UHGV virus genome: UHGV-0392655
Source of the DNA: a virus
Strand: one strand, 5' to 3'
Length of the DNA: 41,417 nucleotides
The position numbers and the translations under genes were made by a program. Below, one piece after another: positions 1,649-41,417 of this stretch. Under the pieces are notes generated by a model that was not told the origin of the DNA, did not search any database, and worked only from the letters and a program-made list of their open reading frames with translations. Each line of letters starts with the position of its first letter. Positions within the stretch are counted from its first letter, which is position 1.

Positions 1649-1651
1649 GGC

Positions 1652-12504: not shown

Positions 12505-12524
12505 AACGTGTTAAAAATAAAAAA

Positions 12525-16167: not shown

Positions 16168-16171
16168 AACC

Positions 16172-16717: not shown

Positions 16718-16749
16718 TCCCCAACAATCGCATGAGGGCGGACTTCCTT

Positions 16750-16782: not shown

Positions 16783-16788
16783 CGCATC

Positions 16789-18402
16789 TCAATAAAGCAT
16801 CCCCTCCAGAGCGTCGGGGCGTCTGTGAGGCCTCTTCACCTTCTCCGGCTCCCCGGCATGACCGGACACCAGGCCGCGGCTCACCGCCTCGGCAAACGTC
16901 CGGGCGGCATCCGCGCCATGGGAACAGGCGTCATGAAGCGGCATCTCCCGCACGCACCCGTTGGACCCCGGCGGCAAACTGCGGTAATACTCCAGGGACC
17001 CCACCCCGGAAACATACTTCTGCCCGTCAATCTCCGGGCGCCGGTTGCAGCGCTCATGAAACACGCAAAAACGCAGCATATTCCGCAGCGCGTTAATCCC
17101 GGTCCAGATATCGGACGTGCGCGGCACAATCGCCGTGCGGAACCCGGCCCGCTGCAGCACGGACTCAAAAGACGTCTTGGAAAAATCCCTTCTGGCCGCA
17201 TCGTGCGGCAGCAGGTGCAGGGCGACAGGCCCGAACTCCCTCTCCCTCATCCGGATCTGCCCCACGTAATAATCAACCGCCTGATTATTCCCGGCAATAT
17301 AATCCAGCGCGTAATACCTGCCGCCCACCACCTGCCAAAGCCAAATCGCCATAAAATCGCTCAACCCCAAATCCCAGGAAGCATAAATCGGAGCCACGTC
17401 ATCCACTTCAAACTCGGCGGCGATCCTCCCCTCGGCCCGCAGGGCAGAAATCCACCTCCCGTAAATAGCCCCCTCCACGGACGTCTGCAAAGCCTCCTCC
17501 GGCACGGTGGGAAACTCCTGCTTCACCTCCGCCCCGTTAATCCTGTACTGGGTAGCGTACCACGCCTTCTGCCCCTCGGACAACTCAATCCCGTAACGCC
17601 TCTTCAAATCGGAAAAATAATCCCGCAAAAAATCATCCAGCCTCGGCTCCACCCCCTCCAGGCAATACTCCCGATGCTGGATCCAGGAAAAAAAGAAAAA
17701 CCTGAAATCCAGGCTGGAAAGAGGCTTGCCCACCATCTCCATAGCCTGCTCCATCAACTGGTAAGCCAGCCCGGCCTTCCCTCCCTCGTGGGTGGACTCC
17801 ATCACCACCACGCAGCTCTTGCCAACGGTATTCAACGCGCCCGTGCGGATCTTCCTGGCCCTGGCCGGATCATGCAGCGCCGTATAGGAAAACTCGGAAA
17901 TATGCAAAAACTGGAGAGTGGACCCGCGCAAATTAACCCCTACATCAACAGACCCGTTCGTGGACCAGGCCATGCGGGTGGCCCTCTTCTCCACCACAGC
18001 GCACCCCTCCTTAACCATCCTCCCCAAAGCAGCCAGCGCCCGGTCCTCCATCGTCGGATTCTCCGGCAAAAAATCCAAATGCTCATAAGCAAAAGCAATC
18101 TTGCGCAGCTTGGCCTCCCCGTCCTCCAGCGTCTTATCAATAATCCCGCAATGCTGATTCCTCCCAAACAGGCAAAGATCCAGCATATAAATGGCGCAAA
18201 ACGTAGAAATCCCCAGCTGGCGCACCTTCAAAATCGTATTGCGGAACCAAAGCCCGTGAAAAAGCTCCTCCTGGGCCCAATTCGGGCGGAAGCGCACCAT
18301 CCGGCCCTCCTTATCCTCAATCCAATACAAATGATTAAGGCGCCACCACCTGTCGGCCAGCAGCTCCTTCCAATCCGGTCTCGTCTTCGCAGGCTCCGTC
18401 AT
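16789..18402 (-). CDS. terL: Terminase large subunit.
   Basis: 537 aa. N-terminal ATPase region with 'RFRPNWAQEELFHGLWFRNTILKVRQLGISTF' and a C-terminal nuclease-like region, typical of TerL. Confidence 0.8.
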   Translation of the reverse strand: MTEPAKTRPDWKELLADRWWRLNHLYWIEDKEGRMVRFRPNWAQEELFHGLWFRNTILKVRQLGISTFCAIYMLDLCLFGRNQHCGIIDKTLEDGEAKLRKIAFAYEHLDFLPENPTMEDRALAALGRMVKEGCAVVEKRATRMAWSTNGSVDVGVNLRGSTLQFLHISEFSYTALHDPARARKIRTGALNTVGKSCVVVMESTHEGGKAGLAYQLMEQAMEMVGKPLSSLDFRFFFFSWIQHREYCLEGVEPRLDDFLRDYFSDLKRRYGIELSEGQKAWYATQYRINGAEVKQEFPTVPEEALQTSVEGAIYGRWISALRAEGRIAAEFEVDDVAPIYASWDLGLSDFMAIWLWQVVGGRYYALDYIAGNNQAVDYYVGQIRMREREFGPVALHLLPHDAARRDFSKTSFESVLQRAGFRTAIVPRTSDIWTGINALRNMLRFCVFHERCNRRPEIDGQKYVSGVGSLEYYRSLPPGSNGCVREMPLHDACSHGADAARTFAEAVSRGLVSGHAGEPEKVKRPHRRPDALEGMLY

Positions 18403-21400
18403 TGCGTATCAACAGCTAAAAACTCAAGGGGGCGGTCCCCGGAAACCCGGATGCCAAACCGCACATCCCGCCTCCACATGGCGGACGGAAGCACCTCATG
18501 CCATCCCCGTTCCATCGTCCTGGTCTTGCTCAACCGGTCCCAGGCGCTCCCGTCATTGGACACCTCAATACCGGCCGGGGCCGTATCGGAAGCAAAAAAC
18601 ACGCGCACGGCCGCGGCCTGTCTATCCCTGCCCAGGGACTCCGCCACATCCAGCGCATTCGTCACCACCGTGGACGTAAAATCCCACGCGCCGGCATCCA
18701 CAAACGGGCCGTCCGGATCAAACACCTCCACAAACCGCCCATCCTCACGCTCCACGGACACAAACAGCAAATCCTCCCCGGTCCCATTGGGCAGCACCAC
18801 GGCGTTGGACATCCGCCCCTCCGTCCTGTGACGGTGCCAGGCATGCACCTGGTGCATGCTATTATAAGTCATCAGCGCCAGCGTGCCGTCCGCCAGGGTC
18901 ATCACCGCCCGCGGGTGGGGCTTCCTCATAAAATCCCCGGAAGTAACCCCGCCGCCGCCGGCCAGCACATGATCGGCGAACACCGTCAAATCGCGGGACA
19001 CAAACCCGTCGCTCTCATAATCATACCCGTACTGATACACCCGTCCGCCGCCCCTCTCCACATACAGCACCTTATCGGTCGCCATCAGGGCCGGCACATC
19101 GGAAGACCCCACAAACCCGTGGCTGTCCGCCCGCGCATTGGAGTAAGTCATCACCCCCTGGCCCCCGGACACCGTCCACTCCGCGTCCGCCGTCCCCAGC
19201 AGCAGCCGGGAACTCTGCGCCATCAGCCAGCAAATCCTGTTCTGCGTTGTGGTGCTCAACGTCAAAGCCAGCGCGGAATCATCCTGCTTCCCCACCTCGA
19301 AACTGTTGAGGTCATCCGTCTTGCTCAACCACACCGTCTGCGGCTGGGCCTGCGTAGCGGCCAACACCAGGCGCTGCTGAAACACATCCACCAGGGAAGG
19401 AAACCCGTACACCCCCCGGAACGCCGCGAAACTCCACATCAACGACTCCCCGGACGGAGGAACCCCCTCCGGAACCGCGGAAACATTATCCCAAAGAGAA
19501 TACTCCGCGGAAGCCGTCACCTCGGCCGCCTCCGCCTCCATCCACGCCGTGCAGGCCGGCACCTCCACCCGCACACGGGAACGCAACTTCACATTACTCT
19601 CCGTCCATGCCTGTACGCTAATCAAAAACAAACCATCCTCCGGCACCGTGTAAGACGCCTCCTCCATCGCGCTGAACACCTCCGCATACCTGCCGCCGGA
19701 CATCCCCTTGATCGTGGAAGGCAGCACAATCTCCATCCCCGACTGGACAGACCTCCATCCCTGCAGCGTCACCACCGTACCCGCCGTTAAAAAACGGCTC
19801 ATGAAAATGCTGGCCGCATTCCCGTTCCCGCTCTTATTGACGGACTCCGCCGCCTGCGTCCACTCCAGGCGCACCATGCTCCCGGCGCCCACATCATCCG
19901 TCGTCAGCCCCCTGGGCCTCACCGTCAGCGTCCGCCCCTCTCTGGACAACGGACACTCCCCGGAAAAACGCTCCCCGTCAACCACCAGGGCATTCACTGC
20001 GGGCAACCCGGCATACACGCAATAATCATACGCATCGCCCTCCAAAGGCAGCGTCAACTTCAACACGTCGCTGGTGGACAACCCCGCCGCGGACATCTCC
20101 TCCCGGACTTCCGGCTTCACCACCCCGGAAGCCACCCCGGAAAACTCCGCCTGACACTCGGCAGCCTCCAGCGTACTGCCCTTATCATGAACAACCTTAA
20201 CCGTATAAAACCCGCTGGCCGGCGCGGTATACACATCCGCACTGCTCTTCCAAACCGTCGTAAACTGCGCATCCCCGGCGGACCAGGCCGTCAACCGAAC
20301 CACCGCGCCCTCACCCATTCCGGTCAGGGCGTTCCCCGTCACATTCACGTCAAACCTCGCCCCGGCTGGCCAAAAATCCGTCCTCATCCCGCGGGCGTCC
20401 AGCGTCACGGCCCCGGATTTGCGCGGCTCCGTCCAGGCAAACCGGACCGTCTTCCCGTCCTCCAGCGCATCCGCGGGCAGCCCCCTGGGCGTCACGTCAA
20501 CACCGTCGGGCCCCAGCGTCAGCACGGCGGACGCCCCCGGAACCTCCACCTCATCCACCCACACGCGGCTTGCCCGGATGGAAGACGCCGTACAGGTCAG
20601 GAAATGCCGCAACGCCGGCGTGGCGGGAACCGAAAACCGCTGTATGGAAGCAGGCCGGGAGCCGGAACGCAGCCGCAGCACCACATCCTTCTTATAAGCA
20701 TCCACCACCAGCTTATTCCCGCAGCTGTCCGGAGGAAACCCCTGGCTGGGATCGGAACCGCTGGAAAGCCGGGACTCATACAACATCAGGCGCAGGTAGC
20801 ACTCCTCTTCGCTCTCGTCCCCGGTAATCTGCAAATTGGAAGCCGAGCCAACCATGGAAGTGGACGTCCCCAGCAGCTGCCAATCCTCATCGGGAAAACG
20901 CCGCTCCACGGCATACGTGCCGTACCACTCCTTACTGCACCAAAACTTCCATGTCCCCTTGCAGGTAATCGTATTGGAATGGCAAATCACGCCCTTATGA
21001 AAATGCTCCGGATAATCCGCCGGAGACGTCAGGCCGTCCACAAAATCCGCCGCCCCGTTAAAATCCCTGTCGCACGTCCACCAGGACCAATAACTCCCCT
21101 CATTGAGGCAGAGCTTTTTCCCAGCCGTGAAAGCGCTGGCCGCCGTAAACGCCCCGGCAACCACCCAGCCCTGGCGAATCACGGCCCCCGTGCTGAACCC
21201 GGTCTGCTGGGGCACCGTCACCTGGACGCGCATCACATCCCCCTCATTCACCGCCGCGTCCGCATCGGACGCATGCTCCCCGAAAGACACCCTGTAACAC
21301 CCCTCATCCAGCGTCAGGCGCACCGGAAAATCCCGGAACTCCTCATACCGCCAGGGGCGGGCCTTAAACTCATAGGGCGCCAGGGAAAACATGCCCTCGT

Positions 21401-21788
21401 CATCCCGTCTCAGCACCATCAGCTCATGCGTAGGGCAGGCCAGAAACAACATGCTGTTCACCTGCTTGTGGCGCAGGGCGGCAACGTCAGCCGCCGTCCA
21501 CACGGAAGGCAGGGAGGCAACCACATCCCCCTCAACGGACAACACGCGCAGCAGAGAAGGAGCCACCTCCACAAGAAAACGGTCATTGGTGGAATAAACA
21601 TAGGGAAGAAGAAGGGAACCCTCCAAAGCGGCGGCCACCCTCCTCATCCCGTGCCGCCGGGAAACTCCCCCCGTTTGGGAAACATCCACATTCTCCAGCA
21701 CGGACGCCCCGCGATGATAAACATCCAGATCCGGACGCGCGGCAATCCCGGGCGAAAGCTCGCCTCCATTAAAGGAAATCCTCTTCAT
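18399..21788 (-). CDS. Tail tubular protein B-like (T7 gp12-like nozzle) large tail protein.
   Basis: N-terminus 'ISFNGGELSPGIAARPDLDVYHRGASVLENVDVSQTGGVSRR' resembles T7 gp12 'NLKGGISQQPDILRYPDQGSRQVNGWSSETEGLQKR'. About 1129 aa. Position is after the capsid gene. Confidence 0.5.
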   Translation of the reverse strand: MKRISFNGGELSPGIAARPDLDVYHRGASVLENVDVSQTGGVSRRHGMRRVAAALEGSLLLPYVYSTNDRFLVEVAPSLLRVLSVEGDVVASLPSVWTAADVAALRHKQVNSMLFLACPTHELMVLRRDDEGMFSLAPYEFKARPWRYEEFRDFPVRLTLDEGCYRVSFGEHASDADAAVNEGDVMRVQVTVPQQTGFSTGAVIRQGWVVAGAFTAASAFTAGKKLCLNEGSYWSWWTCDRDFNGAADFVDGLTSPADYPEHFHKGVICHSNTITCKGTWKFWCSKEWYGTYAVERRFPDEDWQLLGTSTSMVGSASNLQITGDESEEECYLRLMLYESRLSSGSDPSQGFPPDSCGNKLVVDAYKKDVVLRLRSGSRPASIQRFSVPATPALRHFLTCTASSIRASRVWVDEVEVPGASAVLTLGPDGVDVTPRGLPADALEDGKTVRFAWTEPRKSGAVTLDARGMRTDFWPAGARFDVNVTGNALTGMGEGAVVRLTAWSAGDAQFTTVWKSSADVYTAPASGFYTVKVVHDKGSTLEAAECQAEFSGVASGVVKPEVREEMSAAGLSTSDVLKLTLPLEGDAYDYCVYAGLPAVNALVVDGERFSGECPLSREGRTLTVRPRGLTTDDVGAGSMVRLEWTQAAESVNKSGNGNAASIFMSRFLTAGTVVTLQGWRSVQSGMEIVLPSTIKGMSGGRYAEVFSAMEEASYTVPEDGLFLISVQAWTESNVKLRSRVRVEVPACTAWMEAEAAEVTASAEYSLWDNVSAVPEGVPPSGESLMWSFAAFRGVYGFPSLVDVFQQRLVLAATQAQPQTVWLSKTDDLNSFEVGKQDDSALALTLSTTTQNRICWLMAQSSRLLLGTADAEWTVSGGQGVMTYSNARADSHGFVGSSDVPALMATDKVLYVERGGGRVYQYGYDYESDGFVSRDLTVFADHVLAGGGGVTSGDFMRKPHPRAVMTLADGTLALMTYNSMHQVHAWHRHRTEGRMSNAVVLPNGTGEDLLFVSVEREDGRFVEVFDPDGPFVDAGAWDFTSTVVTNALDVAESLGRDRQAAAVRVFFASDTAPAGIEVSNDGSAWDRLSKTRTMERGWHEVLPSAMWRRDVRFGIRVSGDRPLEFLAVDTQ

Positions 21789-21823
21789 TTCCCCTGAACA
21801 TAACCCAGGGCGTTCAACCGGGG

Positions 21824-21855
21824 CAAGTTGGCGAAAATCAACGTTTCTTCTCCGG
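21824..21855 (-). promoter_or_regulatory. Conserved late-operon motif, copy 2.
   Basis: The complement of CAAGTTGGCGAAAATCAACGTTTCTTCTCCGG sits 35 nt upstream of the ATG at 21788. Confidence 0.5.
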
Positions 21856-21917
21856 AACAGCAAAAAGGGCCGCCTCCATGCAGAGACGGCCCTATGGACA
21901 AACCGACGGGAAAAAAA

Positions 21918-22373
21918 CTACTGAATACCGTAAGCAATAGCAAAAACAAGCTTCTTGCCGGCGGTCACCGCCGGTGTTCCGCCCACCTTCGCGTAAACCA
22001 TCGTCACAGCATCCACCGGCCCCGTGGAAACCGCCTGGGAACCCTTCGTCAACTGATAAGTCCCGGCGGCGGTCACGGTCAGGGAGGCGGAAAAAGCATC
22101 CGCCGCCTCCTTCGTTCCCACGGTCAGCTGCAGCGTCCCCACGCCTTCGGAAACGACATGGGAAAGCTGCGGCAGCACGCGGGCTCCACAGGGAACATTG
22201 CAAATGGCGATCAGGTCATCGGCCGCCAGGGACGCGGGCATGATGAACTCCGCCGTAGCCACATGGACCCCGGCGCCGGTATGGATGGCCGCCAGCTGCG
22301 GCACCGTCGGCAGGCCGGTCCGATCCGCAAGGGCAAGCTGTTTCTCTGCAATAACTGTTTGATACGTTGCCAT
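21918..22373 (-). CDS. Virion structural protein (about 150 aa, beta-rich). Possible gp11-like adaptor or minor capsid protein.
   Basis: Start at MATYQTV. Position is between the major capsid and tail tubular genes. Confidence 0.35.
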   Translation of the reverse strand: MATYQTVIAEKQLALADRTGLPTVPQLAAIHTGAGVHVATAEFIMPASLAADDLIAICNVPCGARVLPQLSHVVSEGVGTLQLTVGTKEAADAFSASLTVTAAGTYQLTKGSQAVSTGPVDAVTMVYAKVGGTPAVTAGKKLVFAIAYGIQ

Positions 22374-22405
22374 AATCAATAAAATAAAATGTGTTGTTAT
22401 CCTAA

Positions 22406-23374
22406 TTAAGAAAGCTGCTTGCACTTAATCTGCACAAACGCCTCTTCGCGCATGCGGGTGGCTCCCATAATCGTCTTAAGGCCGATCTGGATCGTGTCCT
22501 CCTTATCGGAGCGCTTCTCCACCGTCACCTTATTCTGCTTCCAAGAACCGAAATACAGGGAATTCTTCATCCACATCGGGCAAATGATATCCCCGTCCTC
22601 GTCAAGCGGCAAATTGGGAGCAATGATAAACTGAATCCCCATAATCGGATCCAGGGCGCCGTTGCTCTTGCGCAGGGAGGAAAAACCGAAATCCGCCTTC
22701 TGCAGACGCTCGTCATTAATCAGGGCCTCGCGCATGCGGGGAGTAATCGCGCAGCACACCTGGTCGCCGTAGGCATTGGAAGCATCATCCAGAATCCCGT
22801 TCTCCTGCAGCAGCGTAATACCACGGTTCAGCTTCTCAATCGTCAGCGGGCAATCCTTAGCCGTGCCGCCGGTATAATCGACTGCCACCACATTAGCCTC
22901 CAGCAATTCCAGCTGTTCCATGCCGTCATTGCCGGCAAACGCCGTCCCGAAAATGCCGCCCTTGGACGGCACATATACCCCTCCCTGCTTCTTCAGGCCG
23001 AACAAAACATCGTCCATCTTGCGGGCAGCCGCGTACTTCAGCGCGTTAATCGTCTGCGTCACGGGAGCGTCCAGGCCGTGCAGGAAAATATCGTCATCCT
23101 CATCATAGCCCAAATGCTTCGAAAAACTAACCGGCAGCATCCGGCGCTTGAAATAATCAAGCTCGTCCAACACAATATCCTGCATCCGGCCCTGCTTCTC
23201 ATTCAGCTCCGTAGTACCGACAAAACTGAACTCCTGGAGCTTGCCCGTCAAACCGGACTTGATCACGCAGAAACGTTCCAGGCGGGACGTAGCCTGCTGA
23301 ACCTGCTCCTGCCACTGGTTATCGTAAGTCTCCTGATAAAGATCGGAGATGGGTAAAGTGTAATTACTTGGCAT
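22406..23374 (-). CDS. Major capsid protein.
   Basis: About 322 aa ORF directly downstream of the scaffold/int region, with its own copy of the late motif. Size and position match T7 gp10. Start taken at ATG 23374 (MPSNYTL), not the upstream GTG at 23401. Confidence 0.5.
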   Translation of the reverse strand: MPSNYTLPISDLYQETYDNQWQEQVQQATSRLERFCVIKSGLTGKLQEFSFVGTTELNEKQGRMQDIVLDELDYFKRRMLPVSFSKHLGYDEDDDIFLHGLDAPVTQTINALKYAAARKMDDVLFGLKKQGGVYVPSKGGIFGTAFAGNDGMEQLELLEANVVAVDYTGGTAKDCPLTIEKLNRGITLLQENGILDDASNAYGDQVCCAITPRMREALINDERLQKADFGFSSLRKSNGALDPIMGIQFIIAPNLPLDEDGDIICPMWMKNSLYFGSWKQNKVTVEKRSDKEDTIQIGLKTIMGATRMREEAFVQIKCKQLS

Positions 23375-23406
23375 GCTTCCATCAGGGGACAGAAACCGCA
23401 CATTTG

Positions 23407-23439
23407 CAAGTTGCCGAGTGTCAATTCAGTTGCAGAATC
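23407..23439 (-). promoter_or_regulatory. Conserved late-operon motif, copy 3 (more divergent).
   Basis: The complement of CAAGTTGCCGAGTGTCAATTCAG... sits 33 nt upstream of the capsid ATG at 23374. Confidence 0.45.
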
Positions 23440-23473
23440 TCCAATTCGGCATCTTGTCTCTGTCATACAGACG

Positions 23474-23658
23474 TTACAGAAGTGTTACAAATTGAAGCAA
23501 ATTATTTATAGAAATAAACTTAACACCCACTCTCTCCGCCAAAAGTTTCTGTAAGAAAACCTACGTAAACCTTGATAACGTAGGGGATTATGAATAAGGT
23601 TCGTGTAGGTTTTCTTACGCGAACCTTATTACAAAACCATTACAGAAGATATTACAGG
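23474..23658. other. attP-like or regulatory repeat region immediately upstream of int. It holds direct TTACAGAAG-N2-TTACA repeats at 23474 and 23640 flanking a perfect 14-bp inverted repeat GTAAGAAAACCTAC/GTAGGTTTTCTTAC (23551..23564 and 23605..23618) with nested shorter palindromes.
   Basis: All repeats directly seen in the sequence. Confidence 0.4.
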
Positions 23659-23659
23659 T

Positions 23660-24799
23660 ATGAGCAAACCTTTTTACAAGGGGCGTCTGTCCATCAACAA
23701 GGAAAAATCCTCGCCCTACTGGATGGTGACCTTTCAGGGGCCGGACGGCAAGATGAAGCGCCGTTCCACGAAAGTTCCTGTGAATGGCGGAGAATTTGAA
23801 GGAGACCGGATCACGGCCAAACTGGCGGAACGTATCGCCTACCAGCGGGGCGTGCAGATAGCCTGCGCGGAAGCGGAAGAATACCAGGTGCACAACAATG
23901 TTTCCGTGCGTGCCTGGTGTGACGGATTTGTTGGGCGCAAGGCGGCTCTTGTCTCCGAACAGACGGCCTACAATGCCAGAACCGCCTGCAAGCATTTTTA
24001 CGAGTATCTGGGAGCGCGGGCGAACGCCCCGCTTCGCCTGATCACCAAGGCGGACATCAAGGGCTTTGTGGCGGCTCGCCGCGAACTGGTGCGGCAAAAG
24101 ACTGTGTACAAGGATATGTCCGTTCTTTCCCAGGCATTCGCGGATGCCGTGGATTCAGAAGTAATTGACCGCAATCCGTGCGCCGGCGTTTCCATTCCCC
24201 CGGACCGTGCCGGGGAAAAGCTGCACAAGGAAGCCTTCACACTCGACGAGATCCGCTACATGATTGAGCATTTCCCGCCCCTGTGGAGTTCCGCGGTACG
24301 CTGCTCGTTTGAAACCTACGGCCAGCGGCTGGGGGATATTCTGCGCCTCAACTGGAATCAGTTTGACTGGGAACGCCGCATCGTGCGCTTTGACACGGGC
24401 AAAACGGGGCGCTGGATGGACCAGCCCATGAGAGAAGGCTTTTACCAATGGGCGCTTGCCCGCTGGAAGGAAGCGGGGGAACCGGCGGATGAACTACTTC
24501 ACGCGCCCCTGCTGGCCCTGGGGGATGGCGCGTCCTATCAATTCGGCCTCCTGTTGCGCACCCATGGCATCGGCGTGGTGCATGGAGCGGCCGGCGGCCG
24601 CAGAAGGAGGATGAACAGCAAGTCCTTCCACAGCATTCGGGCCACGGCGGCCACGTTGTTGCAGGCATCAGGCGTATCGCAGGGGCTGGCCATGGAGCTG
24701 GTGGGGCATGACTCTTCCGCCGTGCATAGCGTGTACATCCGCCCCTCCGTGGATCAGCTGCGCTCCGCTGCGGAATCCCTACCGGAACTTCTTCCTTAA
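23660..24799 (+). CDS. int: Tyrosine-type site-specific integrase.
   Basis: 379 aa with catalytic R (GQRLGDILRLNW), H-x-x-R (FHSIRAT) and H...Y (LVGHDSSAVHSVY) motifs. It is the only plus-strand gene in the core. Confidence 0.9.
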   Translation: MSKPFYKGRLSINKEKSSPYWMVTFQGPDGKMKRRSTKVPVNGGEFEGDRITAKLAERIAYQRGVQIACAEAEEYQVHNNVSVRAWCDGFVGRKAALVSEQTAYNARTACKHFYEYLGARANAPLRLITKADIKGFVAARRELVRQKTVYKDMSVLSQAFADAVDSEVIDRNPCAGVSIPPDRAGEKLHKEAFTLDEIRYMIEHFPPLWSSAVRCSFETYGQRLGDILRLNWNQFDWERRIVRFDTGKTGRWMDQPMREGFYQWALARWKEAGEPADELLHAPLLALGDGASYQFGLLLRTHGIGVVHGAAGGRRRRMNSKSFHSIRATAATLLQASGVSQGLAMELVGHDSSAVHSVYIRPSVDQLRSAAESLPELLP

Positions 24800-24836
24800 A
24801 AAAGCCCTGCTCCCAAAAAGGAAACAGGGCTTGCTG
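24797..24836. terminator. Bidirectional terminator-like hairpin between the convergent int and scaffold genes.
   Basis: Stem AGCCCTG...CAGGGCT preceded by AAAAAA on the plus strand, which reads as a U-tract on the minus strand. Confidence 0.45.
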
Positions 24837-24852
24837 GAAAAGCAATATCTGC

Positions 24853-25605
24853 TTACGCACCCATCAGTCGCATATACTTGGCCCTCACCTCGGCAAAACG
24901 CGGATGGTCGCAATCGTGGAATGCCGAATAATCCGGGTGTTCCGGATCGTGCATCATGCGCCGGGCTTCGCCGCGGGCCTGCTGTTCCTGCCGTCCGGGA
25001 GGCGCCGGAAGAGCCGGCTCGTCCAGAATCCGGCCTACTGCATCCAGAATCCTGTACATGGCCGGATGATCGGCAATGCCCATCTCATTAAACACGCTCT
25101 GGTCGATACCGGCCATGCGGCACAACCTCCCGGCCATTTGAACGGCGCGCATCTGGCGTGCGTCGCTGTCCCGGCCCCACTCTCCATCCAGCTGTCTCCA
25201 GGCCTCTTCCATGGCGGCATCCTGCGCCTGCTTCTGTTCGGTCGCTTTGGCCGCCAGACGCGCATCCATATCCTTGATAAACGCGGAAAGCCCCTCGACA
25301 GGAAGCCCGTGGGCCTTGCCGGTCTCGGTCAGCAACTGCTGCAGCGTCTCGTCTCCAGAAAACGTATCATCGAACGTCAACACGTAATCCCCCTGGGAAG
25401 GCGGATCTCCCTGCGGAGAACCCGGATCCGATGGGGGAGGAGGATCCGGCTGCTCATCATCCGCCGGAGTCGGCTCCGGTGCAGGATTAGCCAGGCTGGG
25501 ACGTCCGGAAGCGGAAGGGGCGGCGGAACCTCCTCCGCCACCACCTCCATTCTCCGGAGCCTCTTCAAAAAGAAACCGGTTATGGTACAACTTAAATAAA
25601 ATCAT
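24853..25605 (-). CDS. Putative scaffolding protein (acidic, Gly/Pro-rich N-terminus, helical C-terminus).
   Basis: Start at MILFKLYHN. Position is between portal and capsid, as for T7 gp9. Low-complexity GGGGGGG and PEPTPADDEQPDPPPP stretch. Confidence 0.4.
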   Translation of the reverse strand: MILFKLYHNRFLFEEAPENGGGGGGGSAAPSASGRPSLANPAPEPTPADDEQPDPPPPSDPGSPQGDPPSQGDYVLTFDDTFSGDETLQQLLTETGKAHGLPVEGLSAFIKDMDARLAAKATEQKQAQDAAMEEAWRQLDGEWGRDSDARQMRAVQMAGRLCRMAGIDQSVFNEMGIADHPAMYRILDAVGRILDEPALPAPPGRQEQQARGEARRMMHDPEHPDYSAFHDCDHPRFAEVRAKYMRLMGA

Positions 25606-25615
25606 GGTACTTCTT

Positions 25616-25867
25616 CTATATCTCTTCTTCTGGTTCGTAATGATTGCCCATGGCCGCTTCGATGAACAAAACCACCTCGCGGTAGGCGTCTCGACGCATA
25701 GCGTCAAGGGGGTCGTAAGAACCGGCCTTCCCCTGGAAACAGGGAAGATCGGTCTGGAAATGTCTCTTCAGCTCCTCCAGGACTTCCGGATTCCTGAATG
25801 CTTCCCGGAAAATCCTTCTGCGGCGCTTCATGTACTGTTCGTACTTATTGGTGGGGTCCGTCTTCAT
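25616..25867 (-). CDS. Hypothetical protein (83 aa).
   Basis: ORF with a 4-nt overlap with the portal stop. Confidence 0.35.
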   Translation of the reverse strand: MKTDPTNKYEQYMKRRRRIFREAFRNPEVLEELKRHFQTDLPCFQGKAGSYDPLDAMRRDAYREVVLFIEAAMGNHYEPEEEI

Positions 25868-27513
25868 GTCGTTTGTAAAGCCTGCTGGGCCTGGGCATTA
25901 TTCCTGTTAGCCACGGAGGACTGTTCGGCAATGGCTGCCTGTATGGCCGCTTCTTGCTGATTCTTCCTTTCAGTCTCCTTCTCCTTCACCTCATCCTCTG
26001 TCGCCTTGCACTCCATCGGGGCGCCCTTGGAATCGTAAATCAATTCCCCGGCCTTATTGAGATTCACAATATCCAGCAGCTCCGGTCGGCCGGTCATCTG
26101 CGACAAAGTGCCGATAGACTCAAGAGCCGTCATCAAGCCGTCCGTCTGTGTACGTGCAATCGCCTGGGCAATCTTGCCCATGAACTGAACCTGGGGGACG
26201 GCCAGGCGTGTAGGAGCGCCCCGCCGGTTGACCTCAAACACGCCCTGAACCGGCTCCGGAAGCTTCCCGGCGCGATACAACAGGGCCATAATACGCTGGC
26301 ACATCATCCTGAAATCGCTCACAAACAACGTAAAAGAAGGCGTAAACCCAAGCACCTTCTCGGCTTCCCGGGCCGCCACCTCCGTAGCCGTCATCTGGCG
26401 GTCGATGCGGGAAACGGTTTCCAGCATGGGAACGTAAAAAGCCTCTTCAATCTTGGCGTACAGGCCCCGCAGGTATTCCAGCCCGATATCATACTGCCCT
26501 TGTGTGCCCCATTCGCGCGGCAAGCCAAGTTCCGCCGCTTCCGGAGAAATGACGGTTTGGCCTCCGGCGCGCAAATCCACCTCCCCATACTGCTTTGCCA
26601 GCAGGAAAAGCCTCGGATAAGCCTTTGTCTGTCCCAGCGTGTAAAGAATCTTCTCCATGTCGATAGCCATGCGGATCGTGCGCCGCGCGAACCATGCCGG
26701 TCCCACCCCGTAGGGGCTGTCTCCCCAGCGCAGAAAGCGCGTCACCAGAAACGGAAATTCGAAAAAACCGCTCTCAAACACAATCTTCTTATCGTCCAAC
26801 GAAATAATGACGTCCTTCCACGCTCTCTTGCCAGGCGGCACATGGTCGGACAACAGCTTGCCCTGCGGGTTAGGCAGGACGCATTGCACAAACTCGAAAG
26901 AATCCGTATAGCGTCTCCTGGCATCCTTGAGCGCTCTCCGCACTTTTGGGCCCAGAGCCTCCTCCTTCCACTTCTGCGCCGCCTGGTGAGCCGTCAGCCG
27001 GAACCAGCGCACCAGCGTATCAACATCCCCTGACTCCGACTCCGCGATAGCGTAAGTTCCCGTGGGAATGTGCCGGAAAATCAGCTGCCTGTTAATATTC
27101 ATCTCGGCAAACATGCAGCCGGTTCCCGTCAGGCAGCGATCAAGGTAAACCTCATGAATCACTGAATAAAAATTGGAAACGGCAAGTTCCCGCTCCATCA
27201 CCTCCGTAACCTTGCTGTACCAATCATTCAAAGCCTGATTCCCATCCTTATTAAAACCTACCGGGCGCAAGGTAAACCAGCGCCTGTCCAAAGGCGTAAT
27301 ATAAGTCAAATGGGCGGATGCCAGCTTCTTCAGGCTGTTATTGGCGACGTCGCTATGCTCCAATCCGCCGCTGTGATCAGGTACGCGGTCGGGATAAGCG
27401 TTGCCCGTAGCCCTGGGCATGATAATACGGCGCATTTCATCCCAGCCGCCTTCAAAAGCGGCGCGTTCCGTGCGCAGATTATCTGCCAGGGAAATGTAAT
27501 CGCGTACCTCCAT
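25864..27513 (-). CDS. Portal (head-tail connector) protein.
   Basis: 549 aa. Size, position (before scaffold) and a Gln/Ala-rich C-terminal tail resemble podovirus portal proteins. Confidence 0.55.
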   Translation of the reverse strand: MEVRDYISLADNLRTERAAFEGGWDEMRRIIMPRATGNAYPDRVPDHSGGLEHSDVANNSLKKLASAHLTYITPLDRRWFTLRPVGFNKDGNQALNDWYSKVTEVMERELAVSNFYSVIHEVYLDRCLTGTGCMFAEMNINRQLIFRHIPTGTYAIAESESGDVDTLVRWFRLTAHQAAQKWKEEALGPKVRRALKDARRRYTDSFEFVQCVLPNPQGKLLSDHVPPGKRAWKDVIISLDDKKIVFESGFFEFPFLVTRFLRWGDSPYGVGPAWFARRTIRMAIDMEKILYTLGQTKAYPRLFLLAKQYGEVDLRAGGQTVISPEAAELGLPREWGTQGQYDIGLEYLRGLYAKIEEAFYVPMLETVSRIDRQMTATEVAAREAEKVLGFTPSFTLFVSDFRMMCQRIMALLYRAGKLPEPVQGVFEVNRRGAPTRLAVPQVQFMGKIAQAIARTQTDGLMTALESIGTLSQMTGRPELLDIVNLNKAGELIYDSKGAPMECKATEDEVKEKETERKNQQEAAIQAAIAEQSSVANRNNAQAQQALQTT

Positions 27514-27518
27514 GGCTG

Positions 27519-27749
27519 CTATCCCAGGGTTTTGCGCAACGTGGACAAACCGCCGGACAGATTCGGATTATTCACCGTATCGGACAGCTTCAACCTGCGC
27601 TTACTTTTGGTCTGAACATCCTCCGAAGCATCGGAAACAGACTTCTCCGTAGCCGTCGGATTCAGCGGCTCTTCTACTACCGGCGGAGCCGGAGCCTGTG
27701 TCACTTTAGGTTTGAAAATAGATCCCATAACAACTAATGATGAAAACAA
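27519..27749 (-). CDS. Hypothetical protein (76 aa).
   Basis: ORF lying between the lysozyme and portal genes. Confidence 0.3.
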   Translation of the reverse strand: MFSSLVVMGSIFKPKVTQAPAPPVVEEPLNPTATEKSVSDASEDVQTKSKRRLKLSDTVNNPNLSGGLSTLRKTLG

Positions 27750-28331
27750 CTAAACAAGCTCCTGCGCCACGCTGAACGCATCGTCGCAGCGGTTCAGCCA
27801 ACCCTTCCCGAACACGGGAAACTGCTTGCATGAGCGGTAAAACGCCTGACGCTTCTCCTGCAGGGCGATAAGGAACACCGCTTCACCCGTGGCGGCCAGC
27901 TGGTCCTGCAACTCCTGCCTGGTCCTGGGGCCGACAATCCCGTCCACCACAAGCCCGGCACCGTGAATATTCAGCGCACGTTGCAGGATCTTCCCGGTAT
28001 TCCTGCTCCCGGAATTGAAATAATGATCCCGCAGGATGAATTCAACGCCAGGAAAAGCGTCGGAACCCAGCCAGGAGCGCACGGCGGCGGTATTATCCAG
28101 GACATACTGGAGACAACCTTCCCAGGCCTCTTCACGCCTTCCGGCATCCATCAGGGCCTTCAATCTGTTAAACACGGCCGGTTCAATACCGTCGCAAATG
28201 CCGCAAATCTCCCACTTGCCGCCCTTGTCGGCGGCGGGAAGGCGGGAAACGCGCAGGGAATCTGGCCCGGTAACGCGGCTGTCTTCAAAGCGGAGGATAG
28301 CCGCAGCCATCTTTCTTTCTGTAGTATTCAT
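27750..28331 (-). CDS. Endolysin: GH108-family lysozyme with a C-terminal PG_binding_3 peptidoglycan-binding domain.
   Basis: 'AAILRFEDSR...ADKGGKWEICGI' resembles the GH108 N-terminal motif (IL.FEGG...DPGG.T..GI). The C-terminus 'LVVDGIVGPRTRQELQ' is a typical PG-binding motif. Confidence 0.65.
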   Translation of the reverse strand: MNTTERKMAAAILRFEDSRVTGPDSLRVSRLPAADKGGKWEICGICDGIEPAVFNRLKALMDAGRREEAWEGCLQYVLDNTAAVRSWLGSDAFPGVEFILRDHYFNSGSRNTGKILQRALNIHGAGLVVDGIVGPRTRQELQDQLAATGEAVFLIALQEKRQAFYRSCKQFPVFGKGWLNRCDDAFSVAQELV

Positions 28332-28516
28332 TCGTTCAGATTGTCGATAAGTTGCACAAGCCGCTTGCCTTCCACGGTGTAGCAATGACACTTGGCATGC
28401 AAATGCCACTCATTGAATTGAGCCAGGAAAAAAGCGGCGTCTCTTTCGGTAAGAAAAATTTTCATCCACTGCTCCTTTCCGGGTTCGTCCACAATGAGTA
28501 TGTACAGGGTAGGCAT
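28328..28516 (-). CDS. Hypothetical protein (62 aa) with no TM segment.
   Basis: ORF with an ATGA overlap with the lysozyme start. Confidence 0.3.
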   Translation of the reverse strand: MPTLYILIVDEPGKEQWMKIFLTERDAAFFLAQFNEWHLHAKCHCYTVEGKRLVQLIDNLNE

Positions 28517-28726
28517 GCGGAAACTATTGATTATTAACTAAAGGGAACTTGTAAGAAAAACTTTACAGTTGGTGTTATCGTCCGCACCGAGAAAAGTACA
28601 AGAGAATGGCCAGTGCAGTGAGCCATACCCCGATACCATATCCAGGTTCCCCTATACACATGAGGGTAAATCCCAAAACTGTTGCTGATAAAATGGCCGC
28701 TAACGACAGAAAGAATTGTTCTTCAT

Positions 28727-29011
28727 TCACTTTTCCAGCTTCCTTTCTATGTTTTCGATGCGCACGGCAAGCAGTTGAATCGCCTTGGCCGTCTCCACCT
28801 GGGCCTGCGTCTGCATGGTCATCAGATCACAAAGGCGGTCATTGTGGTGGCTGACCACCTCCCCGATGTACCAGCATGCCCCGCCGCATATCGTCAGCGA
28901 CATCAGGACGCAGGCAAACACGGGGGAAGCCTTGGCAAAATCCAGGAAACGCGCCGGTACTTCGGAGAGCTTACACATGGCCTTATTTCTTGGAAGGTAC
29001 GATTTGAACAA
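28727..29011 (-). CDS. Small membrane protein of the lysis cluster (single TM plus coiled coil; holin or i-spanin-like).
   Basis: 'PVFACVLMSLTICGGACWYIG' TM segment followed by a heptad-like C-terminal region. Confidence 0.4.
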   Translation of the reverse strand: MFKSYLPRNKAMCKLSEVPARFLDFAKASPVFACVLMSLTICGGACWYIGEVVSHHNDRLCDLMTMQTQAQVETAKAIQLLAVRIENIERKLEK

Positions 29012-29306
29012 CGGGAGGAACGTCCGTAACAGGCTGGGCCTGGGAATAGGAGATATGCCCCGGCTCCAGCACCAGGCAGGAACCGTCCTTGCATACCACC
29101 GTCTTTTTCGGCGTCACGTCCACGGAATGGCCGCAGCCACCCAGCAGAGCGGAAGCCGCATAGGCAGCACCTGCCAGGACTACCCACAAAAGGCGTTCCC
29201 ACCACTTCAGGCCGGTTTTAGTTTTGCTTTTTTCGTAGGCATCTTTCATGCCCTGCTTCCCCGCCTCAAGGGCGGCCTGCTTTTGCTCGTCACTTAATTT
29301 ACTCAT
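28983..29306 (-). CDS. Membrane/lipoprotein of the lysis cluster (108 aa; holin or o-spanin-like).
   Basis: Start at MSKLSDEQ. Lys-rich N-terminus, then hydrophobic 'LLWVVLAGAAYAASALLGGC' ending in a lipobox-like LGGC. Confidence 0.35.
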   Translation of the reverse strand: MSKLSDEQKQAALEAGKQGMKDAYEKSKTKTGLKWWERLLWVVLAGAAYAASALLGGCGHSVDVTPKKTVVCKDGSCLVLEPGHISYSQAQPVTDVPPVVQIVPSKK

Positions 29307-29715
29307 GGTTTTGCTTTGTGAAGTATTTGAAAAAATCCACGGCGGCAGGGTCGGTAACAATGAACTCCGGGTAATCACGGGAAGTGAACACCCTCCGCCC
29401 GCCCTGCGGATTGACAGCCTCAACGGTCAGCACCACGGCAAAAACGTATTCGCTACGCTCATTCGCGACATCATACGTCATAGTAATACCTAACCGCGCC
29501 CACACCTGCACCGCCTGCCAGTCCTCACCCAATCCCACCAGCGCAGCAACTACGGACTCCATTGCCGGAGCCTGTTCCGCTGGTATCTCGTCCGCTGTGT
29601 AGCGGTCTGTCCGGGTGTAACCGCCCTTGTCCTGATAAATGGCCGTCAGGGTGAATTCTCCCCACTCGCCGGGCCGGGGAAACTGTATCTGTATCTCTGA
29701 ATTATTCATGCTCAA
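29299..29715 (-). CDS. Hypothetical protein (138 aa), possibly a tail-fiber-associated or assembly protein.
   Basis: ORF immediately downstream of the tail fiber gene with a 4-nt overlap. Confidence 0.3.
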   Translation of the reverse strand: MSMNNSEIQIQFPRPGEWGEFTLTAIYQDKGGYTRTDRYTADEIPAEQAPAMESVVAALVGLGEDWQAVQVWARLGITMTYDVANERSEYVFAVVLTVEAVNPQGGRRVFTSRDYPEFIVTDPAAVDFFKYFTKQNHE

Positions 29716-31760
29716 TCTTCGGTAGTCGTTTCGGCTTCCGGATCAACAAAATCCTCCACCGCCTCGGAGACAATGATATTGCTCTCCATGGAGGAAAACC
29801 CGTAATATGCCGGATTGACGTTATTGCAATGCAAGTGCATCGTCGCAGGAAGGAACGCTCCGGCCAACGCCCAGCTGTTGGCATTCTCAATATCAAGATA
29901 ATATCCGGAAAAGGGATAAATATTCTCAAAGCAATGGACTCCCCTCACCGTGGCGATCTTGACGCAGCCGCGGGTGGAATTCCCGCCATGCAGCAGCCAC
30001 AACGCTCCCCTGTCTTCGGTATCATATCCTCCGTCCTGGTATTGCTCGTAAACCACCGCGTACACGCAGACGGGATAACCGTTATTGGAAGACGTCTCCG
30101 GCGCGAGGGCCTGCGTCGTCTTCATCTTCCATTTCTGCTCGGCATTGGAATAATAAATCTCCCGGACACGAATATGATACCCTCCCGCGTCCGCGTCCCG
30201 GACATGATCAAACGTAATATCGATAATCTCCCCAATCCTGTAGCCGCCAGCCGCCTGATCCGGCACCAGCGTAAACGCGTCCCTGTCCCTTCCCATGCGC
30301 ACGACCGTTGTCATCTGGCCGAACCTGGCCGTGAATTTCGTGCTGACAGCCGGAAGGCGCACCGGAGCCACCCACCCCCGGATGCTGGAATAATTGTGCA
30401 TGGGCCTCGCGTTGGTCACGAGGCCGCATTTCACGGTAAAAGAGGAATTGGGAGGGACATTGAAATAAAGGGAATTGGGTTCCTTGTCTGTTTTGAAAAC
30501 CGTCCCGTTGGAAGATGAGCAATTCGCCGGGAGCGGATAACACCTGACGGAAAAAGCGTCCGTCACGGCGGCCAACCCGGCGGCGTACAGGCGGTTGACG
30601 CCGGATTCATTGGTCGGCGCCCCCACAGCCAGCGGGACATTGATCCCGCCATTGGCGTTAATAGCCCCGGCCGCCGTCAGACCTCCGGCCAGCGTCATGT
30701 TGCCTGCATCATCTACTTGAGGTATGGCCTCAAGGGCCTGCTGGGCTTCTGTGGCGGAGTTGGCCGCGCTGGTGGCAGAGGTCGCGGCATTCGTCGCGGC
30801 CGTATTGATGCGCCCCTCCGCCTGATCTATAGCCTCTTTAGCGGTTTCGGCGCGCTGGACAAGGGGCGTGATCGTCCCTTGCGCTTCCTCCTCCGCCTCC
30901 TGAACGGCGGCAACGGCATCCGCCTGCGCGCTGGCTATATTCTGCTGCGCGGTCTGTGAGGCACGACCTACGGCCAGCACAGAAGCCGCTTGCTTGTCCT
31001 GCACAGCAGTAACAGCCTCATTCCTGGCTTCAACAATTTTCTTCTCCCCGTCGCTGACCGTTTCCGGCCAGGTGGCGGCCAGCGACTCCACAGCCGTTTT
31101 AGCGTCATGGGCACTCTTGGCGTCACGGTCCGCGTTGGTTGCGGACGTACCGGCGGCGGCCTCGGAAGCGGCGGCGGCCCTTTTGGAGGCCAAAGCGGAA
31201 CCTGCATAGCCTTCCGCCTCTTCGGCCCGTGCAGCAGCGGTGGCTGCCGCGTCCGTTGCCGTCTTGGCTGCCTGGCTCGCCGTTTCCGCATTGGTGGAGG
31301 ATGTGTTGGCATTCTGTTGCGCCTGTTGGGCCGCGATAATGGAGGCCGTGTTGGAAAGCCACTGGGCCTTGATCGTCTTACTTGCCTCAACAGGTATCGT
31401 AATACCCATTGCAGGAATATCGTACACCGTGGACGACTCAACAGGAGCCACAGAATCCACGGCCCCAATATAACCGGAAAACAGCCTCAAATCCTCTCCG
31501 GACTCATCCTGTGCATGAATGGCATACGGCCAGCGGCCAACAGGCAGGGCAGGAAAAGTAAGCTCCAAACAATGTTCTTGCTCGCCGTGTTCAATAACAA
31601 CGGGCAAGTCTCCCTGTTCCGTCTTCACCACACCGGTGAAAGAAACTCCTGTTAACGGGAACGGAGATTGCGTCACATCCTCGAACAAAAGCCAGCCTAT
31701 GCGCTTGGCATAGCCTGCCGTCGTGGACAAATGGCGCGTCATTCCCAGAAAATTTAACAT
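29712..31760 (-). CDS. Tail fiber protein.
   Basis: 682 aa. Globular N-terminal attachment region, a long Ala/Thr/Gln-rich coiled-coil shaft (AAQQAQQNANTSSTNAETASQAAKTATDAAATAAARAEEAEG...) and a globular C-terminal receptor-binding-like domain. Confidence 0.6.
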   Translation of the reverse strand: MLNFLGMTRHLSTTAGYAKRIGWLLFEDVTQSPFPLTGVSFTGVVKTEQGDLPVVIEHGEQEHCLELTFPALPVGRWPYAIHAQDESGEDLRLFSGYIGAVDSVAPVESSTVYDIPAMGITIPVEASKTIKAQWLSNTASIIAAQQAQQNANTSSTNAETASQAAKTATDAAATAAARAEEAEGYAGSALASKRAAAASEAAAGTSATNADRDAKSAHDAKTAVESLAATWPETVSDGEKKIVEARNEAVTAVQDKQAASVLAVGRASQTAQQNIASAQADAVAAVQEAEEEAQGTITPLVQRAETAKEAIDQAEGRINTAATNAATSATSAANSATEAQQALEAIPQVDDAGNMTLAGGLTAAGAINANGGINVPLAVGAPTNESGVNRLYAAGLAAVTDAFSVRCYPLPANCSSSNGTVFKTDKEPNSLYFNVPPNSSFTVKCGLVTNARPMHNYSSIRGWVAPVRLPAVSTKFTARFGQMTTVVRMGRDRDAFTLVPDQAAGGYRIGEIIDITFDHVRDADAGGYHIRVREIYYSNAEQKWKMKTTQALAPETSSNNGYPVCVYAVVYEQYQDGGYDTEDRGALWLLHGGNSTRGCVKIATVRGVHCFENIYPFSGYYLDIENANSWALAGAFLPATMHLHCNNVNPAYYGFSSMESNIIVSEAVEDFVDPEAETTTED

Positions 31761-40390: not shown

Positions 40391-40723
40391 TCATTCGTTC
40401 AGCCCGGCCCGTTCCAGCATCTGGCAAACCGGATCACTCACCCGGACGGCAATCGGAGTCCACTCATCAGTCAAATCTTCCGGCCTCATCATTTCAATGT
40501 CATGCTTGCCGGTAAGGAGGTCATAGCCCCTTGACTTTGCGATTACTTCCAGGGTAGCTCCATATTTCTTGCAGAGCTTTTTGAGCTGATTGATTTCCTG
40601 GTAAGCATTTCCGGTCAATTTCAGCATATAGGGTTCCATCTGACGGAGATTGATTGCCAATCCGTTGATGATTTGTTCTTCAGTAGCTTTTTGGATGGTG
40701 TTCATGTGTTCGTTCATGTTCAT
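40391..40723 (-). CDS. Hypothetical early protein (110 aa).
   Basis: ORF. Confidence 0.35.
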   Translation of the reverse strand: MNMNEHMNTIQKATEEQIINGLAINLRQMEPYMLKLTGNAYQEINQLKKLCKKYGATLEVIAKSRGYDLLTGKHDIEMMRPEDLTDEWTPIAVRVSDPVCQMLERAGLNE

Positions 40724-40905
40724 GCCGCGGGCTTCTTGGGTTCGGAGTTCTTCTTTCGAGGTTGTGGACTACGGTCTTTTGCCTTCTGGCGGAAATCCAT
40801 GATGGCGCCGATAACGAGAGCCCGGCCGCTCAAGCCTGTAGCGGCCTGCGCCTCCCGGAACCACTCCCGCACTTCTTGCGTTTCTTTTTTCAGGTCGATG
40901 ATCAT
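40720..40905 (-). CDS. First early-gene product (about 61 aa) transcribed divergently from the repressor. Possible Cro-like regulator.
   Basis: Start moved to MIIDLKK, because the longer six-frame ORF would read through the operator repeats and share a CATG start with the repressor. Confidence 0.3.
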   Translation of the reverse strand: MIIDLKKETQEVREWFREAQAATGLSGRALVIGAIMDFRQKAKDRSPQPRKKNSEPKKPAA

Positions 40906-40935: not shown

Positions 40936-41034
40936 AAAATGCACCCAGAACGAAATTAAGTCAACATTATTTTTCGTTTCTGGTGCATCAATGGTAAATA
41001 TTTCTATTGCGCTTGATGCACTTCTGGTGCATAA
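40936..41034. promoter_or_regulatory. Repressor operator region with four GTGCAT/ATGCAC hexamers. The strongest site is the palindrome TGATGCAC-ttctg-GTGCATAA at 41014..41034, which abuts the repressor start codon.
   Basis: Hexamers at 40940, 40983, 41016 and 41027. Half-site centres of the palindrome are 11 bp apart. Direct repeat ttctgGTGCAT[CA]A at 40976 and 41021. Confidence 0.5.
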
Positions 41035-41041
41035 TGCTGAC

Positions 41042-41417
41042 ATGCTCAATGCTGAAGACATCAAAACGTGGCTCAAAGAGATAGGGAAAGACCGTGCGTG
41101 GTTAGCTGAAAAAACATTGGTCAGTAAGCGAACGGTGGATAACTGGCTTTCTGCCGGAAAGCCGATCGTTCCTCAAAAAATGGAACTCATTGAAAAGCTG
41201 ATGTCAGGAGAGGAAGAAATTGAGTTTGAGCTTCCGCCAGACTTTGAAAAGCAACTTCGCGCCATGGCGGATGAAGCAAAAAAAACTATAGAGGATATGG
41301 TTTCCCATATCCTTCAAGTCACAGCCAAGGCACATCAGAAAAGGAAAGCAGAAGCTCCCAGCCAGCAGTTTACCCCGGTAGAAACATTCACAACCCCTCC
41401 TTTGGAGGCTCAGGGAC
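41042..41417 (+). CDS. N-terminal HTH (XRE-like) DNA-binding domain of the CI-like repressor. The 3' end runs off the window with no stop, and the same frame continues into 1..386 across a circular junction.
   Basis: 'MLNAEDIKTWLKEIGKDRAWLAEKTLVSKRTVDNWLSAGKPIVPQKMELIEKLMSGEEE...' is open to the last base. The trailing C at 41417 plus GA at 1..2 make CGA (Arg), joining to ...IIGNIAAG... in frame. Confidence 0.75.
   Translation, partial: MLNAEDIKTWLKEIGKDRAWLAEKTLVSKRTVDNWLSAGKPIVPQKMELIEKLMSGEEEIEFELPPDFEKQLRAMADEAKKTIEDMVSHILQVTAKAHQKRKAEAPSQQFTPVETFTTPPLEAQG

Follow-up and report, generated by a model that had tools for sequence, protein, structure and literature searches.

The viral genome record UHGV-0392655, a stretch of 41,417 nucleotides analysed here at its full length (the window), is best explained as the full 41.4-kb genome of a temperate, podovirus-like Akkermansia phage in its excised attP form: a complete, circular-map contig linearised at an arbitrary point that fell, by chance, inside the immunity repressor gene. 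We put the probability of this explanation as a whole at about 93%. For annotation, it means treating the record as a complete, circularly permuted genome, merging its two terminal partial open reading frames (ORFs) into one repressor gene and not taking its first 2.5 kb for host DNA.

Each end of the window holds part of one gene. An ORF beginning with ATG at 41042 stays open through 41417 (376 nt, 125 codons plus one base); codon 126 is completed as CGA (Arg126) from base 41417 (C) and bases 1–2 (GA), and the frame then runs from base 3 to a TAA at 384–386. Across the join the product reads …PPLEAQG-R-IIGNIAAGNLADG… with no stop, as the first-pass annotation had written it from a last ORF with no stop and a first ORF with no start, open from base 3. 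Its length of "about 254" residues needs a small correction: the single joined ORF encodes 253 residues, and 254 is reached only by counting the stop codon. The two parts of the gene are as follows.

41042–41417, plus strand: 5′ part of the repressor gene, covering residues 1–125 and the first base of codon 126; predicted XRE-type helix-turn-helix (HTH, residues 1–55), ribbon-helix-helix-like (RHH-like) β-α-α segment (residues ~57–105) and linker.
1–386, plus strand: 3′ part of the repressor gene, covering residues 126–253 and the stop; predicted Ala133–Gly134 scissile bond, Ser165 and Lys204 within the S24 peptidase domain.

Searching a large protein collection with the joined sequence returned two entries (P0001 and P0002) that are 100% identical over 100% of the query and are encoded elsewhere as a single gene, together with a graded series of homologues, several of them source-named Akkermansia muciniphila or Caudoviricetes. 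Six independent metagenome contigs carry an uninterrupted gene for exactly this protein. An artificial 12-kb junction, made from the last 6 kb of the window followed by its first 6 kb, was aligned to contigs encoding P0002, P0006 and P0010, and the join is crossed by all of the fetched loci (20/20). Locus L003 matches for 6,644 nt at 100% identity with no gaps; L002, L004 and L005 match at 99.95–99.99% identity over 6.7–6.8 kb, and L001 at 99.3% over 9.4 kb, all gap-free. An exact 39-mer spanning the join is present in six IMG/VR contigs, bringing the number of contigs that run across it to 26. Because independent contigs run gap-free across the join, the real molecule links the two window ends directly, neither losing nor repeating a base, and the circular closure proposed in the first-pass annotation stands for the map. 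Away from the join, independent contigs at 95% identity or more cover all of the window except four intragenic stretches.

The attachment site and integrase show the same molecule from a second side.

23526–23541, plus strand: attP core of 16 bp, CCCACTCTCTCCGCCA, identical to the last 16 nt of tRNA-Ser (CGA and UGA isoacceptors), including CCA.
23402–23659: attP arms, with the P arm at 23402–23525 and the P′ arm at 23542–23659.
23660–24799, plus strand: tyrosine integrase of 379 residues (PF00589, E = 4.1e-10, 40.2 bits against a cut-off of 27.1; PF13102, E = 7.2e-6).

The arms contain TTACAGAAG repeats at 23474 and 23640, and P′ has imperfect inverted repeats of 28–32 nt. No tRNA gene was found in the window, which holds only the 16-nt tRNA fragment. 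The window integrase occurs at 100% identity in 856 blocks of the collection, and in 9/9 places shown from the longest contigs it lies at tRNA-Ser beside host genes; the anticodon of this tRNA is CGA in one genomic setting and UGA in the other. A. muciniphila CP027005.1 (L015) becomes similar to the window from position 23526, right at the end of a tRNA-Ser(CGA) gene. The other end of the prophage, attR, was reached by looking up the exact 151-residue protein that neighbours the capsid gene (a capsid protein search of species-representative genomes gave no relative); there, the capsid gene abuts host RadC or UvrA. On the int side the lysogens are homologous to the window from 23526 onward, and on the capsid side their homology stops at 23541–23543.

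These contigs supply both prophage ends. attL is composed of tRNA-Ser…CCCACTCTCTCCGCCA followed by window 23542 onward, placing P′ with int (L015 and L022–L030); attR is window …23525 followed by CCCACTCTCTCCGCCA and host sequence, placing P with the capsid end (L031–L040). The window has P arm, core and P′ arm in one piece (P-O-P′, attP). Both ends are present on one lysogen contig (ERZ15610052 NODE_19, the source of L025 and L033), where attL at 26377 and attR at 68235 delimit a prophage of 41,859 bp from core to core, against 41,417 bp for the window. Using a pattern of the tRNA 3′ end joined to host sequence from attR, we retrieved unoccupied attB from Akkermansia metagenome-assembled genomes (L118, L100 and L107); in L118 the two host flanks abut, the left one stopping at 7325 and the right one, 98% identical to the attR flank of L032, beginning at 7326. 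The exact attP junction is also present in three IMG/VR contigs. Because attL, attR and attB share the 16-bp core and the arms exchange as expected, the window carries attP, and recovery of all four att sites supports the unintegrated configuration that had been proposed from the letters alone. The accompanying suggestion that an integrated copy would be split near 23550 was right about the region, where lysogens do split, and slightly off in position, the core lying at 23526–23541.

The host is Akkermansia (A. muciniphila group), and two host contexts are represented: dnaX…tRNA-Ser(CGA)…RadC (L022/L031) and CPT/TfoX…tRNA-Ser(UGA)…UvrA (L025/L033). One integrase protein is therefore found at two tRNA-Ser isoacceptor genes; both tRNAs share their last 33 nt, including the 16-bp core. 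In the scheme that these sites suggest, the tyrosine integrase would recombine the attP core with the identical tRNA-Ser 3′ end, rebuilding the tRNA at attL, and Int together with an excisionase would excise the prophage. As in tRNA-targeting tyrosine integrases of the P4/P22 class, the attP core is a tRNA 3′ end, the tRNA is rebuilt at attL and int adjoins attP; unlike that class, the same integrase is used at tRNA-Ser(CGA) and tRNA-Ser(UGA), and int/attP lies between capsid and scaffold/portal genes, splitting the head-gene cluster on integration. attP, attB, attL, attR and host are thereby resolved for a prophage lineage that turns up commonly in public assemblies of gut metagenomes. A. muciniphila is a gut bacterium of medical interest, for which the att system would be useful in planning induction, curing or strain-typing work.

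Assembly in a circular attP form would also suit a phage-plasmid that is kept as a free circle in lysogens and does not integrate, and a variant contig (L021) that has neither attP nor most of int would agree with such a lifestyle. This is highly improbable given the identical integrase in 856 blocks, its position at tRNA-Ser beside host genes wherever the longest contigs show it, the matching attR ends and empty attB sites, and the finding of no partition or plasmid-replication family among the relatives' precomputed Pfam matches. L021 itself (a Logan ERR13986248 contig, 99.3–99.9% identical to the window) has a 1,081-bp deletion, 23458–24538, that takes out attP and the 5′ 880 nt of int and is bounded by imperfect 16-bp repeats, CAATTCGGCATCTTGT and CAATTCGGCCTCCTGT. 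The contig represents either a deletion variant that does not integrate or an artefact of assembly.

Downstream of the repressor, guanine-plus-cytosine (GC) content falls to 33–47% in window 1–2500, against 55.7% for the whole window. The cargo stretch (390–2507) is bounded by the repressor stop and the 3′ end of a gene for a 3306-residue protein, and is made up of a cassette and a block of three ORFs.

390–1306: 917-bp cassette, present in some relatives and absent in others, lying exactly between the repressor stop and the next ATG; AATG microhomology at its flanks, GC 41–47%.
497–706, plus strand: ORF of 69 residues with a signal-peptide-like N terminus and two GGHYDRKTGTYH repeats, secreted-looking.
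724–749: strong terminator-like hairpin after the 69-residue ORF.
795–1244, minus strand: ORF of 149 residues, convergent to the 69-residue ORF.
1304–2507, plus strand: three cargo ORFs of 114 residues (weak HTH/excisionase-like match), ~80 residues and ~196 residues; GC 33–45%.
2557–2573: terminator-like hairpin at the end of the three-ORF cargo, facing the 3′ end of the 3306-residue gene.

L006 is 99.9–100% identical to the window on both flanks of the cassette and lacks window 390–1306. The same three genes (114, ~80 and ~196 residues) follow the repressor in L001–L006, ahead of the 3306-residue phage gene, and relatives whose repressor region is 91–97% identical at the DNA level carry different cargo at the same position. 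attL and attR show what the host flanks really are, and relatives vary the cargo at this one position; the low-GC genes are therefore phage cargo and not host flank. The earlier description of the genes at 400–2530 as phage morons is borne out to that extent; they may also be morons in the strict sense, expressed from the prophage. Promoter-like sites are only ~2-fold above shuffles. None of the five cargo ORFs, nor the small early ORFs, has a usable match in Pfam, PHROGs or PADLOC, and we do not propose that they form a defence system. The alternative cargo in L007–L020 includes a 572-residue AAA_15/AAA_21 ATPase together with a protein that has an SNase domain; SocA_Panacea, DUF3800, DUF6804 and DUF2971 proteins also occur, and the site resembles a hot spot for defence or toxin–antitoxin genes.

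The GC drop over 1–2500 is the sole support for taking the window as a chromosomal fragment with an integrated prophage, in which 400–2530 would be host flank. That reading is refuted by the 26 other contigs in which the window ends are adjacent, by the P-O-P′ arrangement in the window with its 16-nt tRNA fragment, and by the real host flanks (dnaX…tRNA-Ser/RadC and CPT/TfoX…tRNA-Ser/UvrA), which are known and absent from the window. The three cargo genes between the repressor and the 3306-residue phage gene in L001–L006 also speak against it, and we rate its chances as close to nil.

For the protein encoded across the join, comparisons of sequence and predicted fold support a self-cleaving S24 repressor of the LexA/CI type as the probable identity. 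Pfam Peptidase_S24 (PF00717) matches residues 129–232 (35.5 bits against a cut-off of 23.3, E = 8.8e-9), and the PHROG_4 profile, "transcriptional repressor", matches residues 4–235. A profile of 41 homologues, run against the PDB, finds LexA structures at E = 6e-4 to 1e-3. In the profile alignment, IGNIAAGN of the repressor falls on VGRVAAGE of Escherichia coli LexA, equating Ala133–Gly134 with LexA Ala84–Gly85; GHS165M falls on GMS119M (GxSM; Ser165 with Ser119) and TLK204KL on TVK156RL (VTLKKL with VTVKRL; Lys204 with Lys156). The alignment to CI/LexA profiles proposed in the first-pass annotation thus places AAG, GxSM and LK[KR]L on LexA A84–G85, S119 and K156. Across the 41 homologues G134, S165, K204, N130 and A132 are invariant and A133 is nearly so. 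In Foldseek, the best PDB matches are LexA and lambda CI, through their C-terminal domains; RecA-bound and hyper-cleavable fragments are among them.

The N terminus is modelled by AlphaFold2 as four helices, with a predicted local distance difference test score (pLDDT) of 82–91 for residues 1–50, and gives partial Foldseek matches to the XRE-type HTH proteins SinR and HigA2 (template-modelling score 0.67–0.75). The homologue profile also matches the XRE-type proteins 3bs3 (E = 0.009) and 3omt, and homologues of the repressor carry PF01381/PF15943. We place the start at 41042 because its Met is also the first residue of homologues as distant as 35% identity, among them the annotated repressor of Akkermansia phage Chantilly.

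In its plan the protein resembles lambda CI and LexA (MEROPS S24), which are also its best structural matches: an N-terminal DNA-binding domain, a linker with an Ala-Gly bond and a C-terminal S24 domain with a Ser/Lys dyad, encoded by a gene divergent from the early lytic genes. It differs from them in being only ~17–24% identical to solved structures and in having a predicted β-α-α (RHH-like) module of ~50 residues between the HTH and the cleavage site. The label "canonical CI/LexA-like repressor" therefore fits the HTH (sub-threshold in Pfam), linker, Ala-Gly site and dyad, but is not strictly apt for a protein with an additional middle module.

The repressor gene is transcribed divergently from the early-gene cluster, and the intervening DNA contains repeats.

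40939–41032: candidate operator region, proposed from its repeats, separating the repressor gene from the early genes on the opposite strand.
40720–40905, minus strand: small divergent ORF of 61 residues from ATG at 40905, or 74 residues if started at GTG 40944.

Two copies of TTCTGGTGCAT lie at 40978 and 41022 and an inverted near-copy lies at 40939–40955; GTGCATCAA/TTGATGCAC form an inverted repeat in the same region. The region is conserved in relatives, at a column identity (97%) that makes them too alike for a conservation test. The small ORF is called as a 74-residue gene in L015–L020 and has no family match in Pfam, PHROGs or PADLOC; its position makes it a candidate Cro-like early regulator. 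If the parallel with LexA and lambda CI holds, the repressor would occupy candidate operators in the 40939–41041 region and keep the divergent early promoter region shut. On DNA damage, RecA filaments would stimulate its self-cleavage at Ala133–Gly134 through the Ser165/Lys204 dyad, and the minus-strand early genes would then be expressed.

Several observations weigh against the explanation given at the outset, or against parts of it. A single-sequence phmmer search of the repressor against the PDB gave no LexA or CI match, and the E-values of the LexA profile matches are modest. The AlphaFold2 model of the full-length protein is of low confidence (overall pLDDT 61). The HTH of this repressor itself falls below the Pfam cut-off and is supported by the predicted fold instead. 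Gene callers used on other assemblies extend the protein upstream to 270 or 334 residues, the start at 41042 resting on conservation. The TTCTGGTGCAT count is not significant window-wide (2 against 0.54 expected; 14/100 shuffles reach 2), no excisionase was identified, and no direct repeat of at least 8 nt common to both window ends was found, so that no terminal overlap is kept. Finally, "circular" applies to the map only and not to the physical DNA.

The longer gene calls are probably over-extensions: the added sequence overlaps the divergent small ORF, and the homologues, down to 35% identity, start at the 41042 Met. The overlap of the small ORF with the 270- and 334-residue versions, which come from some gene callers only, leaves public annotations of the locus inconsistent.

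With an HTH below threshold and DNA binding that rests on prediction, the S24 protein might instead be a UmuD-like or other accessory protein, with immunity set by another gene. We consider this quite unlikely. The N-terminal helical domain is confidently predicted and matches XRE-type HTH folds, the gene is divergent from the early cluster with repeats in between, PHROG_4 matches over residues 4–235 and homologues carry PF01381/PF15943; moreover, its homologue in Chantilly, an induced Akkermansia phage, has been annotated as a repressor.

The form of the DNA itself is the point on which a different account has most to offer. Packaged DNA may be linear with terminal redundancy (direct terminal repeats, or headful and circularly permuted), the contig having been closed on the repeat and trimmed; the genome would still be complete, and no circular episome would have been sequenced. 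The portal is of the T7/BcepC6B/HTVC010P podovirus type, and podoviruses of this type package linear DNA. A 79.5-kb IMG/VR contig with attP, at ~2 times unit length, would fit concatemers. On the other side, no terminus or repeat is marked in the window, and the intact attP cannot discriminate between virion DNA and an excised circle because it is equally expected in both. We judge this account a serious contender, at somewhat less than an even chance. The long contig (L121, IMGVR_UViG_3300006099_000007) measures 79,528 bp, about two unit lengths, and contains attP with its junction intact (99.5% identical to the window). It could be the assembly of a concatemer or dimer, or else a tandem prophage.

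The middle segment of the repressor (window 41210–41356, residues ~57–105, between the HTH and the Ala-Gly site) stands apart. Modelled alone with AlphaFold2, it forms an extended stretch followed by two helices, a β-α-α arrangement with pLDDT 86.7. Its top 50 Foldseek matches are nearly all RHH proteins (CopG, Arc, AmrZ, CopA_SO, TacA, KacA and AtaR), but weak ones (E = 0.36–4). Sequence searches gave no significant Pfam match of the segment to an RHH family (best E = 0.04–0.09, for Antitox_RHH, TacA1 and FitA-like_RHH) and no significant PDB match (KacA at 0.15). Against 1.84 billion representatives, a profile of the segment found just 24 proteins, most of which either carry the segment near residue 56, like the repressor, or are fragments of proteins that do; none of the 24 provides a link to a recognisable RHH protein. 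Homologues show two sequence variants of the segment, which is restricted to this small repressor family.

An HTH–RHH–S24 architecture is thus a possible one, a lead rather than a finding. More speculatively, and on balance doubtfully, the protein could be a three-module immunity repressor in which an XRE-type HTH, an RHH-like dimerising or DNA-binding module and an S24 domain are combined. Cleavage of lambda CI and LexA removes the dimerisation domain. Here, because the extra module is N-terminal to the Ala-Gly cut, the cleaved fragment could stay dimeric, and induction logic would then differ from that of lambda CI and LexA. We found no description of an HTH–RHH–S24 repressor in the literature searched.

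The repressor has its closest annotated counterpart in Chantilly (ON453895.1), an A. muciniphila prophage listed among the induced prophages of OMM12 mice (PMC10197239). Its repressor, WAK79057.1, comes from a phage of the same host genus and is 35% identical over the full length (E = 1e-39), with corresponding start, HTH, GEEEI-FELP middle segment, AAG site, GxSMEP and LK[KR]L. The rest of Chantilly is unrelated: ~5% of an 18-kb query (window 12000–30000) gave matches, 90% identical and located near the endolysin and portal genes, and the morphogenesis module and the integrase position are different.

The remainder of the gene set fits a podovirus-like phage, with a terminase large subunit (TerL)-like protein, portal, scaffold, capsid, tail proteins, amidase, replication and recombination genes, int and the repressor.

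2584–12504, minus strand: ORF of 3306 residues, a quarter of the genome.
16789–18402, minus strand: terminase large subunit-like protein, 537 residues (phrog_2, 9e-17).
Including 18399–21863: tail proteins.
22406–23401, minus strand: major capsid protein (phrog_3437, 7e-36; PF19821), at the attR end of the prophage.
24853–25707, minus strand: scaffold/protease-like protein (phrog_458/3742), at the attL end of the prophage.
Within 24853–27513, minus strand: 83-residue gene, also at the attL end of the prophage.
25864–27513, minus strand: T7-type portal (phrog_332, 4.9e-74; PF12236), at the attL end of the prophage.

The precomputed Pfam matches of near-identical relatives add an amidase, MarR-like and DnaA/IstB-like proteins, a PD-(D/E)XK nuclease and an ART-PolyVal/LPD3 protein. 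No isolate phage has a portal more than 28% identical to this one; BcepC6B-like and Pelagibacter HTVC010P-like podoviruses come closest. With these the phage shares a T7-type portal (PF12236), a PF19821-type capsid and a genome of ~35–42 kb; it differs from them in this low portal identity and in carrying the 3306-residue ART-PolyVal/LPD3 "polyvalent" protein. DNA of isolate phages gives small mosaic matches only (Akkermansia phage DTMo-2021a over 7% of a 6-kb query, Chantilly over 5% of the 18-kb query). No close named relative was found in the isolate phage database and no description of this phage in the literature searched, and near-identical uncharacterised contigs are already public. A CI/LexA-like switch, integration at a tRNA site and a cargo locus beside the repressor are textbook biology.

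The layout of the head genes is a separate matter. The int/attP module (23526–24799) sits between the major capsid and the scaffold/portal genes (window 22406–27513), so that integration splits the head-gene cluster. In the prophage, the capsid gene and ~20 kb of same-strand genes after it lie at the opposite end from portal and scaffold, and the two groups are contiguous only after excision. This placement could, as a weaker reading, couple capsid expression to excision; a scan for sigma-70-type promoters around attP and the capsid gene was uninformative. Relatives' copies of the 3306-residue protein (3136–3585 residues) carry ART-PolyVal and LPD3 domains, as in "polyvalent" proteins, and the window ORF has a GC dip at ~8000–9000.

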